A stretch of DNA of 35,869 bases, taken from the IMG/VR virus record IMGVR_UViG_3300029678_000016; one strand, written 5' to 3'. The notes under the pieces were generated by a model, which did not search any database, had not been told where the DNA came from, and was given only the letters and a program-made list of their open reading frames with translations. Position numbers and translations under genes: made by a program. Origin of the DNA: a virus. The number at the start of each line of letters is the position of its first letter. The stretch's first letter is position 1. Below are positions 372 to 35,869 of the stretch, in pieces.

Positions 372-403
372 TTTGGGGATGCTGGGGATATTGATTACCT
401 TTG
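372..403 (+). promoter_or_regulatory. Bacteroidota-type promoter for the packaging/virion operon
   Basis: TTTG at 372-375 and TAccTTTG at 396-403 with a 20-nt spacer. It sits 25 nt upstream of the ATG at 429. Confidence 0.6.
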
Positions 404-20939: not shown

Positions 20940-21246
20940 ATCTATGCAACATAAATCGCTGCAAATCAGTCTGATGCGAGAGCTGCATAGATGTGCATTG
21001 ATAATATTTTTCGCATCTATGCAGGATAACCTACTGATTTATAGATACTTGCATTAATGCATTGATAAAATGAAGTACTATTAAATATTTGAAAACAGGT
21101 ATATTGTAATTATATATTATCGCACACCCCGTATTTACGTATATTATAGAAAAAAATGCGATTTTATCAATGCATCAATGCATCGGTCTGATTTGCAGTG
21201 AGTTACACAGCATAGATGCCGATTTTCATCTATGCACATCAATGCA
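20940..21246. promoter_or_regulatory. Hub 2 iteron array (same 9-mer family as hub 1)
   Basis: Forward copies at 20940-20948, 21015-21023, 21166-21174, 21174-21182, 21228-21236 and 21238-21246. Reverse copies at 20984-20992, 20994-21002 and 21058-21066, plus a degenerate one at 21050-21058. A palindrome gcatagatg / catctatgc lies at 21210-21218 / 21227-21235. The AT-rich spacer is at about 21067-21165. Confidence 0.8.
20956..21093. repeat. Hub repeat copy B (138 bp)
   Basis: Matches 35771-35869 plus 73-111 with 2 mismatches. Carries the same 11-bp inverted repeat at 20983-20993 / 21014-21024. Confidence 0.95.
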
Positions 21247-21344
21247 CGTCATCTCGTACCACCTGATTATCAGTGAGTTACAGTGAATTGATAGGTTTTC
21301 CATGCTAATAAACGTTAAATACTGAAATTATTTTGTGCAGATTG

Positions 21345-21373
21345 TTGCAAATTAAAAAAAATCCGTACCTTTG
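21345..21373 (+). promoter_or_regulatory. Bacteroidota-type promoter for the early/replication arm
   Basis: TAccTTTG at 21366-21373, with TTG at 21345-21347 upstream. It is followed by a 124-nt leader containing a 7-bp hairpin (21405-21411 / 21420-21426). Confidence 0.55.
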
Positions 21374-21497
21374 TCAGCGTAATCGTAAACCGATAATCAG
21401 ACGTTCAGCCACCTACGATTGGCTGAGGAAATAAGTGTGGTGAACAAAGGACCACTACGGAGATAGACGGACTCGCTGAATTTAAAAACCGAAAGCA

Positions 21498-21998
21498 ATG
21501 GAGAAAAAAGTGAATCTATGTGCGCTCGAAAAGTTTTATTATGATGCTGTAACGGAAGGCATAGCACGCTGCAAGACAGCCATCGAAGCATTTAATAAAT
21601 TTTCGTCCCCATTGCGCCTTACCGTGAAGGAGGTATTTGCAAGGCATATGGTGCTGGAGTTTTTCGGAGAAGAGTTTGAATACCCGATAAAAGACTTCAT
21701 AGTAAAGAATGCCGACCTGTACCATCCTATCTACGAAAGGGCTAGGGAAATAGCGTATGTAGATTTTTTAAGGAGTTATCGAAAACCAAAAAAGTTAATT
21801 GAATTTATGGAGAATCAAGAAAAGAAGTTAGAACTGATCACGGTCAGCGAAGCTGCCCGTATCTTGGACCTTACCGAGAACGCTGTACGGTACAGAGTAA
21901 AACAGGGCTATCTCAATCAATACCGTAACATGAACGGTGCGTTGAGACTCAGCAAAGCGGAAATTACAGAAAAATATTTAACATTTAAAAAACAGTAA
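21498..21998 (+). CDS. DNA-binding protein with a C-terminal excisionase/MerR-like HTH
   Basis: LITVSEAARILDLTENAVRYRVKQGYL is a typical HTH_17-like helix-turn-helix. It is the first gene of arm B. Confidence 0.6.
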   Translation: MEKKVNLCALEKFYYDAVTEGIARCKTAIEAFNKFSSPLRLTVKEVFARHMVLEFFGEEFEYPIKDFIVKNADLYHPIYERAREIAYVDFLRSYRKPKKLIEFMENQEKKLELITVSEAARILDLTENAVRYRVKQGYLNQYRNMNGALRLSKAEITEKYLTFKKQ

Positions 21999-23918: not shown

Positions 23919-23993
23919 TTAATAGTTTATTCAAAATTTGGCAAATCAGAACGGACGTTATACCTTTGAGTCATCAAAGTTAAACAAGTAGTA
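23919..23993 (+). promoter_or_regulatory. Conserved promoter-plus-leader cassette, copy 1
   Basis: TTTG at 23937-23940 and TAccTTTG at 23961-23968 with a 20-nt spacer, followed by the conserved CATCAAAGTTAAACAAGTAGTA. Near-identical cassettes lie at 29322 and 33129. Confidence 0.75.
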
Positions 23994-24016
23994 TTAACGA
24001 CTTAAAAACAAGAATC

Positions 24017-26741: not shown

Positions 26742-29108
26742 ATGTTGGAGAAGTATCTTATATCAGTTGCAGGGTCCTCCAAGAGCACCAATTGGAAGAG
26801 AAAAACATACACTTGGGAAGCCTTAGTCGAAGAGCTATCGAAGCCCAAGATGGTCGGAAGCGAGACTATGAAAGAGTTCGACAGGCTGGCGAAGTCGGAG
26901 AAGGCGATCCGCAAGGATGTCGGAGGCTTCGTAGGCGGAACGCTAGCAGGCGGAAGACGTACCAAAAACTCAGTAGCAGGCAGATCACTTATCACATTAG
27001 ACGTTGACTACGGAGAGGATGACTTTTTCTTCGGTTTTTCTTTGCAATTCTCATGCGCTGCTGTTATATACGGCACAAGATCAGACCGTCCAGGTAAGCG
27101 GAGGTTTCGTCTTATCATCCCGATGGACCGTGAGATCGATAACCGGGAAGAATATGAAGCAGCCAGCCGGAAGGTAGCGGAGATCATGGGCATCGAACTG
27201 TTCGACCCGACGACATTCCAAGCCGAACGTCTGATGTACTGGGGATCGGTATCCAAGGACCAGGAGTTTTATTTCGAGAGACAGGATGGAGACGCGCTGA
27301 ACGTAGACGAACTACTCGGTATGTACGGAGGAGAGGACGCGTGGAAAGACGTACGCCTATGGGCGTTTACTGATAACGAGGAGCGCACGATCCACAGCAC
27401 TGTCTCAGAGGCTGGGGAACCGACCGACAAACCGGGGGTCATCGGTGCATTCTGCCGGGTATACACCGTACAGGAAGCTATCGAAAAGTATCTGTCTGAC
27501 GTTTATGAGCTCTGCGATCATGATCGCTACACCTATAAGGGAGGATCGTCCGCAGCCGGAATGATCGTGTACGATGACAAGTTCGCCTACTCCCACCATT
27601 CCACCGACCCGATCGGAGACGGTCATGTATACAATGCTTACGACCTTGTGCGCATCCACTTGTTCGGTCATCTCGGAAAGGAAGAGAGCGAACACGCGAT
27701 GGCTAGACTTGTACAGGAGGATGAGCCATGCCTCCGCGAGTTAGTCGCTGCTAATGACTGCATGGATGACTTCGATGATGTATCCGATGAATCAGTAGAA
27801 GAGACCGAGGAAGCGCTGGATTGGGACCTTGACAGCAAGGGACGCAAGGAGGTGACCATCCGCAACTTCGTCAACGCCTTCCGCACCGATCCCCTGCTGA
27901 ACAATCTGCTCGCGTATGACCAATTCCGAGGAACCATAGTGTATACCCGTAAGCCGTTTTTCGACAGCAGCAAGGACAAAGGAGACATATTCGATGACAC
28001 CGCAGAGTCAATCATCCGCAACCGGATCGAGACAGCCCACGGGATTTACTCCACCGGGAAGATGTGCGATGCCATCGAATATGTGTCCAATAAAAACGGC
28101 TTCCACCCCATCAAGACTTTTCTCGATTCGCTTGTGTGGGACGGAAAGCCGCGTATCGACACGTTCCTTCAGACCTACATGGGTGCTGAGGATTCAATCT
28201 ACGTAAGAGAGGCGTTCCGCAAGATGCTGGTAGCTGCGGTTGCCCGCATATACGAACCAGGAACTAAGTTCGACACCGCTCTGATAATGGTATCACATCA
28301 AGGTGCGGGTAAGTCAACGCTGGTCCAGCGACTGTCGAAGGGGTGGTTCAACGACTCCATGACATCGTTGGAAGGCACGAAGGCTTACGAGTCGATCCAG
28401 AATGCCTGGCTGGTGGAGCTAGCCGAGTTGTCAGCCATCAAGAAGTCAGACATCGAGGTGATGAAGAACTTCCTGTCCAAACGGGAGGATACATACCGTG
28501 CTGCCTACGCCAAGCGTATCAAGACGCATAGACGGCAATGCGTATTCTTCGGATCAACCAACGAGGATGAGTTTCTCAAGGACCAGACAGGTAACAGGCG
28601 TTTCTTCCCGGTCGCGGTGAAGTGGAATGCCAACAGCCACTACCTGTTCGAAAAATCCTTTGAAAGCACCATCGACCAGCTATGGGCTGAGGCTAAAGAA
28701 CTGTACGATGCAGGTGAGAGTCTGATACTGTCGAAGACAGCAGAAAACATAGCTAACGGTATTCGCGAAGAATACACGGAGGTGTCTTCGATGCACGGTC
28801 TGATCGAGAAGTTCGTCAACATGAAATTCCCGAAGAACTGGGACGACTGGGTATACGCTGACCGGAGAGACTTCGTTGACGGGATAGGCGTGTTCGAAGA
28901 AGGCACGGAGACCAGGACAGGTTTCTGCACCTTCGAGATATGGTGTGACGGTCTCGGTCTGCCTCGGAAAGACTTTACGGTAGCCAAGGCTAGAGAGCTT
29001 GCGGGGTCTCTCAAGAGGCTGGGATTCGTCCGGAACGGGCAGAGAAACGTTAATATATACGGCAGACAGTCAATTTACACGCGTATTATTTCGGATACCG
29101 AGGATTAA
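26742..29108 (+). CDS. Primase (AEP-like N-terminus) fused to a VirE/D5-like SF3 helicase
   Basis: ITLDVDYG (DxD), YSHHSTDP, P-loop HQGAGKST, Walker B WLVELAEL, and GNRRFFPV. Confidence 0.85.
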   Translation: MLEKYLISVAGSSKSTNWKRKTYTWEALVEELSKPKMVGSETMKEFDRLAKSEKAIRKDVGGFVGGTLAGGRRTKNSVAGRSLITLDVDYGEDDFFFGFSLQFSCAAVIYGTRSDRPGKRRFRLIIPMDREIDNREEYEAASRKVAEIMGIELFDPTTFQAERLMYWGSVSKDQEFYFERQDGDALNVDELLGMYGGEDAWKDVRLWAFTDNEERTIHSTVSEAGEPTDKPGVIGAFCRVYTVQEAIEKYLSDVYELCDHDRYTYKGGSSAAGMIVYDDKFAYSHHSTDPIGDGHVYNAYDLVRIHLFGHLGKEESEHAMARLVQEDEPCLRELVAANDCMDDFDDVSDESVEETEEALDWDLDSKGRKEVTIRNFVNAFRTDPLLNNLLAYDQFRGTIVYTRKPFFDSSKDKGDIFDDTAESIIRNRIETAHGIYSTGKMCDAIEYVSNKNGFHPIKTFLDSLVWDGKPRIDTFLQTYMGAEDSIYVREAFRKMLVAAVARIYEPGTKFDTALIMVSHQGAGKSTLVQRLSKGWFNDSMTSLEGTKAYESIQNAWLVELAELSAIKKSDIEVMKNFLSKREDTYRAAYAKRIKTHRRQCVFFGSTNEDEFLKDQTGNRRFFPVAVKWNANSHYLFEKSFESTIDQLWAEAKELYDAGESLILSKTAENIANGIREEYTEVSSMHGLIEKFVNMKFPKNWDDWVYADRRDFVDGIGVFEEGTETRTGFCTFEIWCDGLGLPRKDFTVAKARELAGSLKRLGFVRNGQRNVNIYGRQSIYTRIISDTED

Positions 29109-29237
29109 TGCGTATCTTTGCGTCACTGAATATTGAGAGTTATAATTCGTATCTTGTACTACTGATAAGAAGATTTTAGGCTGAGAGAAGCCAACACCCC
29201 ACTTCTTTTATGTTTGTCAAATGCACTTATATTTTTT

Positions 29238-29279
29238 CCTCCCGTATCCCGCTGTGAAGCCCGATACGGGGGGGTTTTT
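29238..29279 (+). terminator. Intrinsic terminator ending the SSB-polymerase-primase transcription unit
   Basis: 11-bp stem (29238-29248 / 29263-29273, including one G-U pair) with a 14-nt loop, followed by TTTTT at 29275-29279. Confidence 0.8.
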
Positions 29280-29321
29280 CATTAATGGGTGTTAATACGG
29301 GCTTCTGTCCACTAACAAACG

Positions 29322-29394
29322 TTAATAATTTGTTCAAAATTTGGCAAATTCAGAAAGCTGCCATATATTTGCATCATCAAAGTTAAACAAGTAA
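29322..29394 (+). promoter_or_regulatory. Conserved promoter-plus-leader cassette, copy 2
   Basis: TTTG at 29340-29343 and TAtaTTTG at 29364-29371, followed by CATCAAAGTTAAACAAGTAATA. Confidence 0.75.
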
Positions 29395-29409
29395 TAAAAA
29401 TATAAGATC

Positions 29410-29610
29410 ATGAAGACAATTACAGTAAAGGTTAAGTTTAAGATCACTGAATTAAACAAAACAAAAAGCATTAAGATAGGGATAGAATTCCCGGAAAATA
29501 AATTCCCCTGTTTCTCTGAATTAGTAAACAAGGTGTACGCTATGAGAGATCCCCGATTAAACAAGCTATTCAACGAAGGATACATTATCGGAGTAGAAGA
29601 GGTACTATAA
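29410..29610 (+). CDS. Hypothetical small protein
   Basis: 66 aa. The start context AAGATCATGAA is shared with neighbouring small ORFs. Confidence 0.5.
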   Translation: MKTITVKVKFKITELNKTKSIKIGIEFPENKFPCFSELVNKVYAMRDPRLNKLFNEGYIIGVEEVL

Positions 29611-29625
29611 TACTAATAATTAACC

Positions 29626-29643
29626 GGGGTGGGAAACCGCCCC
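29626..29643 (+). promoter_or_regulatory. Intercistronic GAAA-tetraloop hairpin
   Basis: 7-bp stem ggggtgg / ccgcccc closing a gaaa loop. There is no U-tract, so it is not a classical terminator. Confidence 0.4.
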
Positions 29644-29658
29644 TAAAATAATAAAATC

Positions 29659-29856
29659 ATGAAAACATTTGAGATCAACAATGAAACAATAACCATCGAG
29701 AAAATAGGCTACGGGCTGTATATATTAACGGGTATGGGCACATCAGTGCCTTGTAATGACTCCGAGATATGGGATTGGTGCGATGACGAAGAAAACAAAG
29801 AGAAACATCTGGCAGCTAAGGAAACCGCATACAGACTGCTTGTAAACAATTTGTAA
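29659..29856 (+). CDS. Hypothetical small protein
   Basis: 65 aa. Start context AAAATCATGAA. Confidence 0.5.
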   Translation: MKTFEINNETITIEKIGYGLYILTGMGTSVPCNDSEIWDWCDDEENKEKHLAAKETAYRLLVNNL

Positions 29857-29867
29857 AAAATAAGATC

Positions 29868-29957
29868 ATGAAAAAGGTAATAAAGACAATACTTAACGCG
29901 ATCGGATTCGTTCTGATCTGCATATTAATAACCGCTTATATACTATTCGTATGCTGA
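29868..29957 (+). CDS. Small hydrophobic peptide, 29 aa (not in the ORF track)
   Basis: Manual translation gives MKKVIKTILNAIGFVLICILITAYILFVC. It shares the AAGATCATGAA start context, and its stop overlaps the next ATG (ATGCTGA). Confidence 0.45.
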   Translation: MKKVIKTILNAIGFVLICILITAYILFVC

Positions 29958-30136
29958 TAATTAATAGAGTAACATTGATTAAGGGCGATTCTAAGGAATC
30001 CATCAACAAGGGTCCGATAGCCCTTGAAATCATGAATGTAGAGCAGTTTCGAGAACATGTAAAGTTGCTGTTCAAGTGCGACAGGGTATTACTAGATTAT
30101 ACGGAGGAAGAAGATGAAACAGAAAACAAGGATTAG
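29951..30136 (+). CDS. Hypothetical small protein
   Basis: 61 aa with an acidic C-tail. Confidence 0.45.
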   Translation: MLIINRVTLIKGDSKESINKGPIALEIMNVEQFREHVKLLFKCDRVLLDYTEEEDETENKD

Positions 30137-30377
30137 CGCAGAGATGGACGGTCGCTATCACGTACAGGAGCTGGGAGGAGACAACTTGTACCACACGATC
30201 CCCGGAGGAATATGTGAGACGAAAGGAGAGGCAAGACGAATTCGCAGGGCTTACAAGGCTGTGGCGAATTACGTAAACAAATTTAACAATAAGTTCTGCG
30301 GAATGCATACCATCCATCTTCCGAACTTTGACCCATCTGATTATCAGAAGAGAGATGAGGAAGAACGAGACAAGTGA
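30114..30377 (+). CDS. Hypothetical small protein
   Basis: 87 aa. No motif recognised. Confidence 0.45.
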   Translation: MKQKTRISAEMDGRYHVQELGGDNLYHTIPGGICETKGEARRIRRAYKAVANYVNKFNNKFCGMHTIHLPNFDPSDYQKRDEEERDK

Positions 30378-33128: not shown

Positions 33129-33204
33129 TTAATAATTTGTTCAAAATTTGGCAAAACCGAAAACCTGCTGTATATTTGCATCATCAAAGTTAAACAAGTA
33201 GTAA
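33129..33204 (+). promoter_or_regulatory. Conserved promoter-plus-leader cassette, copy 3
   Basis: TTTG at 33147-33150 and TAtaTTTG at 33171-33178, followed by CATCAAAGTTAAACAAGTAGTA. Confidence 0.75.
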
Positions 33205-33223
33205 CAATTAAGATTAAACAGTC

Positions 33224-35528: not shown

Positions 35529-35612
35529 AATTTGGTCCAAATTTATAAATTAGCTCAATTTGGTCCAAATTTATAAATTAGCTCAATTTGGTCCGAATTT
35601 ATAAATTCAGAC
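35529..35612. repeat. 28-bp tandem repeat x3 with nested palindromes
   Basis: Units lie at 35529-35556, 35557-35584 (identical to the first) and 35585-35612 (diverged). Each unit holds TTTGGTCCAAA (near-palindrome) and AATTTATAAATT (perfect palindrome). Confidence 0.9.
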
Positions 35613-35726: not shown

Positions 35727-35770
35727 TGTAAAGTATATTGTATATCCGTAGTTTCATGTATGCCTGTAAC

Positions 35771-35869
35771 TCGCTGCAAATCAGTCTGATGCGAGAGCTG
35801 CATAGATGTGCATTGATAATATTTTTCGCATCTATGCAGGATAACCTACTGATTTATAGATACTTGCAT
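35771..35869. repeat. Hub repeat copy A, 5' part (continues at 1-111)
   Basis: 35771-35797 matches 20956-20982. 35798-35869 is identical to 1-72 and to 20983-21054. Confidence 0.95.

Follow-up and report, generated by a model that had tools for sequence, protein, structure and literature searches.

Paired iteron modules in a gut Bacteroides phage genome as probable Rep-type origins homogenised by gene conversion

Gene order, repeat copies and module architecture

The DNA analysed here, IMG/VR virus record IMGVR_UViG_3300029678_000016 (35,869 nt over its full length; hereafter the window), contains a 138-bp near-identical repeat in two copies, A and B. The open reading frames (ORFs) of at least 80 aa that tile the genome are all on the + strand. 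Copy A is followed by terS, terL, the tail, capsid and portal genes, an amidase and a DUF6549 protein, and copy B by an HTH_17 protein, a DUF2800 exonuclease, a Gp2.5-like protein that binds single-stranded DNA (SSB), PolA, a VapE-type primase-helicase, a VRR-NUC nuclease and an SNF2-type helicase. This gene content confirmed the statement of an earlier note, made from the letters of the window, that one copy precedes the packaging, virion and lysis genes and the other the replication and early genes. The division into a virion arm and a replication arm thus held for gene order, but the genome is not just two operons, since it has about seven host-type promoters (see below).

Copy B occupies positions 20956-21093 on the + strand and is crossed internally by the window contig. 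Copy A, on the same strand, is divided by the contig ends, its first part lying at 35771-35869 and its second (repeat positions 28-138) at 1-111. Positions 1-72 duplicate 35798-35869, the terminal overlap of a circular assembly with 35,797 bp of unique sequence; copy A proper therefore reads 35771-35797 plus 1-111, not 35771-35869 plainly joined to 1-111, a detail that the earlier note had left implicit. The repeat itself stood, with 136 of its 138 positions identical and the two mismatches where they had been reported, at window 74 (G, against A at 21056) and window 107 (A, against T at 21089). The longest exact stretch shared by the copies is 100 nt, and the 72-nt overlap lies wholly inside it, so the contig's own circular closure, from the replication arm (Y) through A to the virion arm (X), rests on the repeat. 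The flanking DNA, described earlier as clearly diverged, is indeed so, but homology persists beyond the repeat, extending with gaps over 326 nt at 77% identity.

The repeat proved to be the left half of a module of about 330 nt, comprising the left iteron arm and the start of a spacer. The iteron TGCATWGAT has 23 matches in the window (20 unique sites), against a chance expectation of 0.6, and all of them fall in the two modules. Within the repeat, the left cluster has the orientation > > < ... > > and faces four to six inverted copies across the spacer; thus, copy B, as the left arm of module B, consists of an M2 half-site (see below), iterons > > <, an invariant core, iterons > > and the beginning of the spacer. 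Module A contains five left and six right exact sites, the latter in a right arm at 198-290 on the - strand (inverted TGCATWGAT at 198, 206, 217, 262, 270 and 282), while module B has five left sites, plus one TGCATTAAT variant, and four right sites in an arm at 21166-21246, also on the - strand (inverted TGCATWGAT at 21166, 21174, 21228 and 21238).

The spacers, of 113 nt in module A (85-197) and 99 nt in module B (21067-21165), are 77-85% AT and are putative DNA-unwinding elements. Segment 83-142 is the third least stable 60-mer in the genome (free energy, -62.4; mean, -83.1; standard deviation, 5.6), and 21061-21120 is the second least stable (-60.7). The iteron arrays are flanked by a second conserved motif, the 20-mer M2 (CTGATTTGCAGYGAGTTACA), with two copies on the + strand at 21188-21207 and 21263-21282 and inverted copies, on the - strand, at the outer left edge of each module (35765-35784 in A and 20950-20969 in B), so that M2 flanks the arrays as an inverted repeat. 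These four sites were found at no more than 3 mismatches, none being expected by chance.

The earlier note had also described, within the repeat, an 11-bp inverted repeat with a 20-nt loop and three 9-mer iterons. Three exact copies of TGCATTGAT are indeed present in copy A, but they belong to the larger two-sided array. The inverted repeat is likewise there (CTGCATAGATG...CATCTATGCAG), but not as a structural stem: among relatives, TGCATTGAT occupies the left arm of six A and three B copies, whose right arm still reads ATCTATGCA, so that pairing is lost and the motif retained. Judged by this comparison, the apparent hairpin is a pair of convergent iterons, that is, putative protein-binding sites. 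An RNA or cruciform hairpin was rejected, as the 11-bp stem shows no compensatory change in relatives, and an Rfam search of the whole window at gathering thresholds gave no match. In the related Bacteroides phages BT2 and BF1-4, a 79-aa ORF has been annotated where the right arm of module A lies; it was treated as spurious, the window having no counterpart of at least 80 aa.

Conservation in relatives and exchange between the copies

The closest cultured relatives are Bacteroides phages BT2, BF1-2 and BF1-4, at about 84-85% nucleotide identity, with BT24, BT638P3 and many others more distant. All of these make up the 'alpha cluster' of Bacteroides thetaiotaomicron siphoviruses (PMC12697093), which belongs to the proposed 'Bacteroiduroviridae'. 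Siphoviruses of this cluster are common and culturable, and their hosts are dominant Bacteroides of the human gut. The repetitive intergenic space between genes 21 and 22 has been reported as hard to assemble (PMC12697093), and no published description of the A/B element was found in the literature on these phages.

A total of 23 A regions and 17 B regions (40 copies) from GenBank and IMG/VR were aligned. Thirteen genomes of the clade contain A and B in full, and in each of them the copies occupy the same two positions. The break in IMG/VR contigs 018475, 015352 and 018460 lies in the HTH gene, so that these contigs cross both copies internally, as do BT2 and BF1-2. Contigs broken elsewhere than at the repeat therefore establish a single circle of order X-B-Y-A independently of it. 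The earlier note had named a single copy in relatives and a chimeric assembly join as the findings that would speak against the repeat; every relative with both arms carries two copies, and a chimeric join fails to account for the several assemblies that cross both internally.

A core of about 57 nt (CATCTATGCAGGATAACCTACTGATTTATAGATAYTTGCATTRATGCATWGATAAAA) and the iterons are nearly invariant across all 40 aligned copies, which points to selection. The two-module layout, with one module before terS and one before the early operon, was found in every relative examined, covering five lineages. In the four distant lineages the two modules stand in the same places and have an iteron of the lineage's own, common to A and B: GGATAGATG in BT24 and BT638P3, TGTCATAGA in BC679P3, GTGTTCCGACAC in BV737P3 and ATGACCAGATAA in BU183P1. 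Iteron sets split around an AT-rich centre were also seen in BT24, BV737P3 and BU183P1. The homology between A and B spans 227-356 nt at 63-87% in BU183P1, BV737P3, BF1-2 and BT24, and in BT638P3 it is limited to shorter pieces (110 nt at 72% and 142 nt at 64%). Within a genome, the left halves of A and B are 87% identical over 227 nt in BU183P1 and 82% over 252 nt in BV737P3, yet the left halves of these two lineages cannot be aligned with each other. Such likeness within genomes without alignability between lineages is, on these alignments, the pattern of concerted evolution.

Copies in prophages or episomes were also sought, and the 24-mer of the core had no match in the Bacteroides genomes of GTDB. 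The sole match of the 24-nt core (GGATAACCTACTGATTTATAGATA) in the 596 Gbp of GTDB lies in an alphaproteobacterial metagenome-assembled genome (L078, 2592-2615; CAVVPW010000002.1), on a GC-rich contig about 155 nt upstream of an IS110-like transposase gene; it extends over about 33 nt with 2 mismatches, against about 0.004 such matches expected by chance. Long AT palindromes were observed in the AT-rich centres of several Rep-type origins, such as TAGGCATATATGTATATATATATGTATGCCTA in the IMG/VR Rep locus L128 (L128/L130, 12540-12620), and the centre of module A in BV737P3 (L076) has the palindrome AATAGAATACAATATAT...ATATATTGTATTCTAT, whose arms differ between modules A and B in a compensated manner. 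No comparably clear AT palindrome was found in the spacers of the window.

The near-identity of the copies in the window proved exceptional. Over the 138 nt, A and B are 82.6-87.0% identical in 12 related genomes, compared with 98.6% in the window, and copy B of the window is 96.4% identical to copy A of contig 018460 and 81.9% identical to its copy B. Compared with the B copies of the closest relatives, the window's copy B shows 81.9-85.5% identity in its interior and 98-99% in its flanks; against the A copies of these relatives, the interior reaches 96.4%. Between 20970 and 21078 there are 23 positions at which it differs from the B copies of both 018460 and 019847, and all 23 carry A-copy alleles, 22 of them that of the window's own copy A and the remaining one, at 21056, that of 018460 copy A. 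Outside 20956-21088 it is of the B type, so the converted tract measures at least 109 nt (20970-21078) and at most 133 nt (20956-21088). Both copies share three variants private to the window, at 21048, 21063 and 21078. The 5' switch from B type to A type falls in 14 nt common to both types (TCGCTGCAAATCAG), which is too short for a k-mer mis-join. Judged from these alleles, we conclude that a recent, non-reciprocal A-to-B gene conversion of 109-133 nt explains the near-identity, which by the same comparison is not the ancestral state.

The earlier note had offered strong selection on a cis-acting element or ongoing gene conversion as explanations, and both hold, the first for the conserved core and iterons and the second for the near-identity in the window. 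Mosaics of both directions were found elsewhere in the family, in the B copy of 005964, in the B copies of 14958_6, 017122 and 005075, and in the A copies of 004435, 009419, 011011 and 012956; the exchange between A and B therefore recurs. The mosaic pattern is that of two cis elements kept matched to one protein through repeated gene conversion. At window 74/21056 the alleles are swapped relative to 018460 (G in A and A in B in the window; A in A and G in B in 018460), which may be a trace of heteroduplex repair during conversion.

The primase-helicase and the iterons of its relatives

The replication arm encodes, at 26742-29108 on the + strand, a 788-aa primase-helicase (VapE-like_dom, E=2e-76) homologous to the Rep/PriRep proteins of the Staphylococcus aureus pathogenicity islands (SaPIs). 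In the SaPIs, Rep is a self-loading helicase and doubles as the initiator, recognising short iterons with a C-terminal winged helix (PMC9371898), and the putative C-terminal winged helix of the phage protein is the proposed iteron reader. Residues 379-700 match the SaPI Rep structure PDB 7pds (E=1e-70). An AlphaFold2 model of residues 380-788, with a predicted local distance difference test score (pLDDT) of 87.7, ends in a helix-helix-beta-hairpin (last elements of the model, H351-358, H368-380, E383-391 and E395-402), and a Foldseek comparison with the 7pds chains covered the whole model, with template modelling (TM) scores of 0.75-0.80 over 423-436 columns at 32-33% identity. The C-terminal part is the most variable region of Rep in the family.

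A search for homologues with the C-terminal 170 aa alone gave 3 hits and was repeated with residues 380-788, and 80 IMG/VR loci with Rep homologues were collected. An iteron cluster near rep was scored when at least 5 copies of an 8-mer, in both orientations, started between -150 and +400 nt from the rep stop codon. Clusters just downstream of rep were found in 14 of 79 of these more distant loci. Two of the 14, L128 and L130, share 97% identity over 5 kb and encode 806-aa Reps that have at most 1 difference in the first ~780 aa and 9 differences within the last 21 residues (...GWEPHSSHLRFGKVYGKQRAYIRTK and ...GWERYDKRLRFGKIYGSQRAFIRKK, respectively). Every one of the eight or nine iterons reads TGTAGACA in L128 and TGGTAACA in L130. 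With tail and iteron changed together, this pair appears to come near to a swap of specificity that occurred in nature.

Alpha-family phages with the same winged-helix tail also have the same iteron. The tail LGFVRNGQRNVNIYGRQSIYTR of the window, BF1-2, BT2 and L079 goes with ATCWATGCA, and that of BT24 and BT638P3 (LGFKPVGQRxVKCYGKQTTFVR) with ATCTATCC, while BC679P3, L085 and L086 share the tail KGWKRGKQARLKLYGxQIIYRR, for which the iteron was determined in BC679P3 only (TGTCATAGA).

Candidate origin function, alternatives and neighbouring elements

The earlier note had listed an origin, a packaging (pac) site and a master operator as candidate roles for the repeat. The iteron grammar, the Rep homology and the Rep/iteron link in relatives make origins the best-supported of these, and from them we infer that Rep binds the iterons and that the modules fire as origins. 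Two paralogous, SaPI-like Rep-type origins, homogenised by the recent A-to-B conversion of 109-133 nt, are accordingly our favoured reading, with a probability of roughly 0.6. Module A before terS and module B before the first early gene would each be built as a Rep-type origin. The primase-helicase, a putative self-loading SF3 helicase of the SaPI Rep family, would read the iterons via its C-terminal winged helix, assemble at both sides of the spacer, melt it and prime synthesis. Recurrent exchange between A and B would keep both modules recognisable to one protein, and the phage's exonuclease, SSB/annealing and nuclease functions could also explain why conversion between them is so frequent. 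Cumulative GC skew rises monotonically and is uninformative as an origin marker because all genes lie on one strand. The prediction names two origins, a candidate initiator and its short C-terminal tail as specificity determinant, and it could serve as a handle for phage engineering, for Bacteroides shuttle replicons and for cross-interference among co-infecting relatives.

The layout was not known to the earlier note from any phage family, but there are clear precedents in SPP1 oriL/oriR and in the SaPI origins. In a SaPI origin, the 6-12 iterons are divided equally between the two sides of a central AT-rich region, and at least 2 per side point in opposite directions (PMC9371898). The phage resembles these islands in its opposed iteron sets around an AT-rich centre, in iteron specificity by lineage and in an initiator-helicase homologous over its full length to SaPI Rep/PriRep (PDB 7pds and 7ola), including the putative C-terminal winged helix; as in PriRep5, the helicase is fused to an N-terminal primase. 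Unlike the SaPIs, in which one origin directly follows rep, the phage has two modules away from it, its iterons measure 9-12 nt instead of 5-6 nt, its modules also contain the M2 20-mer and a conserved core distinct from the iterons, and it is itself a lytic siphovirus of Bacteroides. In satellite phage P4, two separate cis regions, ori and crr, carry the same iterons, and the alpha primase-SF3 helicase binds them via its C-terminal DNA-binding domain; the two are spaced 4.5 kb apart, and crr is an auxiliary element, not a duplicate of the entire origin.

SPP1, a siphovirus that packages by the headful mechanism and is transcribed from one strand, has two origins of similar organisation about 13 kb apart, both bound by one initiator; its second origin has been proposed to stall forks and thereby lead to recombination-dependent concatemer synthesis by an exonuclease, an annealing protein/SSB and a resolvase (PMC6316719, PMC3485210). 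The phage shares with it two separated regions with repeats, an AT-rich unwinding element (putative in the phage) and a common motif, and encodes the DUF2800 exonuclease, the Gp2.5-like SSB/annealing protein and the VRR-NUC nuclease. It differs in that SPP1 uses gp38 as initiator, a protein unrelated to Rep that requires the loader gp39 and the DnaB-type helicase gp40, and in that oriL is located inside SPP1 gene 38. By analogy with oriL/oriR, both modules would fire, or one would fire and the other act as a bound barrier, which would help to switch replication to concatemer synthesis for headful packaging. The element is thus most likely not of a new kind, but a duplicated iteron origin that joins known kinds.

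Several observations weigh against the origin reading. The correlation between tail and iteron within the alpha family is confounded by phylogeny. The modules lie 5.2 kb upstream and 6.7 kb downstream of rep, neither adjoining it, unlike the SaPIs and the 14 IMG/VR loci, and the region downstream of rep (29109-30200) has small ORFs and a promoter repeat, but no iteron array; an origin directly downstream of rep is, for its part, a positional habit and not a mechanistic requirement. A further candidate reader of the iterons stands beside module B, where the first early gene (21498-21998, + strand) encodes a 166-aa protein, an alternative or accessory candidate DNA binder, whose C-terminal HTH_17 domain (E=3e-4) falls short of the Pfam cut-off. 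The three lineages with ATAGAT-type iterons all encode HTH_17 with similar recognition helices, and the protein could be the iteron reader in them. In addition, both modules are situated 80-420 nt upstream of the host-type promoters of their arms, so that a transcriptional role is possible, in addition to or instead of an origin function.

These last points are the basis for regarding the modules as operator or enhancer arrays for a phage transcription factor, such as the HTH_17 early protein, that would co-control the virion-arm and early-arm promoters, and the conserved M2 flanking the iterons would fit such a role. A genome-wide scan with the Bacteroides consensus TTTG-N17-23-TAnnTTTG located a promoter of the form TTTG-N20-TACCTTTG in the virion arm at 372-403 (+ strand), 82 nt downstream of module A and ahead of terS, which starts at 429, and a -7 box TACCTTTG of the early-arm promoter at 21366-21373 (+ strand); promoters of the type TTTG-N20-TAnnTTTG were found for both arms and at four internal places. 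At least five further host-type promoters in the genome lack iteron sites, which does not favour co-control by the arrays. Nor does the distribution of the candidate factor: the HTH_17 domain is present in BC679P3 and as a separate 62-aa ORF in BT24, but it was not evident in BV737P3 or BU183P1, which keep the layout and iterons of their own. As 10-12 sites per module split by a strongly AT-rich centre are origin-like, and the Rep family is independently tied to such arrays, we consider it unlikely that the modules are operators alone, although an operator or enhancer role may coexist with origin function. No promoter was found inside the repeat by the Bacteroides-consensus scan, and a sigma-70 scan gave only chance-level hits.

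Considerably less probable is that the repeat is a pac site for the small terminase, present twice. Copy A does lie directly upstream of terS, the usual location of pac, small terminases bind arrays of short repeats, and headful packaging is suggested by a PhageTerm analysis of the alpha cluster, in which no cohesive ends or terminal repeats were detected (bioRxiv 10.1101/2020.03.04.977157). However, a pac site needs no second copy 15-21 kb away before the early genes, and yet this copy is kept in five lineages, while the Rep/iteron link accounts for the arrays without a terminase. Better candidates are the region's own repeats at 35529-35612, three tandem units of a 28-nt palindromic sequence (AATTTGGTCCAAATTTATAAATTAGCTC), which are confined to region A, where they follow the last gene of the replication arm and precede copy A, outside the A/B repeat. 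A diverged version occupies the same place in BT2 and BF1-2, and BT638P3 has instead about 8 repeats of ~23 nt (GGTTCGATGGAACTAGGAA) just upstream of the terS promoter (L074, 16960-17140). Both the 28-nt and the ~23-nt repeats are candidate pac or late-activator sites.

The repeat clearly misleads assemblers, and an artefact, whether from chimeric joining or from a repeat that was collapsed or duplicated, might be suspected behind the second copy or the near-identity, the more so as the window contig ends inside the repeat with its 72-nt overlap within the 100-nt exact stretch. IMG/VR contigs 3300045988_015664, _009419 and _011011 (~21.0 kb; L052/L024, L054/L023 and L057/L017), presented as circular, have both ends in the invariant core, where these overlap by 50, 26 and 26 nt, respectively, and are virion-arm unitigs with false terminal repeats. 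Similarly, GenBank record PQ571261 (BF1-4, 'complete genome', 21,110 bp) contains the virion arm only, 99.95% identical to that of BT2 (L002, 3169-24244). Its closure (L003) relies on a 141-nt overlap (1-141 = 20970-21110) with a hybrid junction of B 5' part, core and A 3' part, the A and B copies of BT2 having only a 59-nt exact core in common; the record is either a mis-assembly or the product of abundant virion-arm-only recombinant DNA in the preparation. The invariant core thus breaks short-read assemblies, and 21-kb virion-arm contigs with false terminal repeats pass 'complete genome' checks. For the window, by contrast, an artefact has next to no likelihood: copy B is internal to the contig, the types switch within only 14 shared nt, the private variants stand in both copies, the cultured BT2 and BF1-2 and the three contigs broken in the HTH gene cross both copies, and BT24-type genomes were closed with read support (PMC12697093). 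As a separate observation, L050 (IMG/VR 3300045988_017122), a contig that broke at the repeat, carries within its first ~45 nt an untrimmed Nextera adapter (TCGTCGGCAGCGTCAGATGTGTATAAGAGACAG) joined to module A's AT-rich spacer.

The hybrid junction of the BF1-4 record is a hint that recombination between A and B, which are direct repeats, could resolve the genome into a 21-kb virion circle and a 15-17-kb replication circle, each with one hybrid origin. The phage would then be facultatively bipartite or a regular source of defective-interfering DNA, and the sub-genomic circles would replicate in trans and be packaged by the headful mechanism; we regard this as highly improbable. A bipartite genome as the normal state was rejected for the relatives, given the contigs that cross both copies and the read-closed BT24-type genomes (PMC12697093).

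Other conserved elements were observed in the early arm. The -7 box of its promoter is followed by a 5' leader of about 124 nt (21374-21497; core, 21402-21493), conserved in relatives, with two predicted hairpins and three compensatory pairs across clades. This leader is present in two tandem copies in BT24 (L073, 20566-21299) and in three full copies and a truncated one in BT638P3 (L074, 37572-38230 plus 1-241). Finally, an 80-nt unit occurs in three copies, 75-89% identical, at 23919-23998, 29322-29401 and 33129-33208, each with a perfect Bacteroides promoter and the leader CATCAAAGTTAAACAAGTA. BF1-2 and BT2 likewise contain the unit in triplicate, and its copies are probably co-regulated middle or early promoters.

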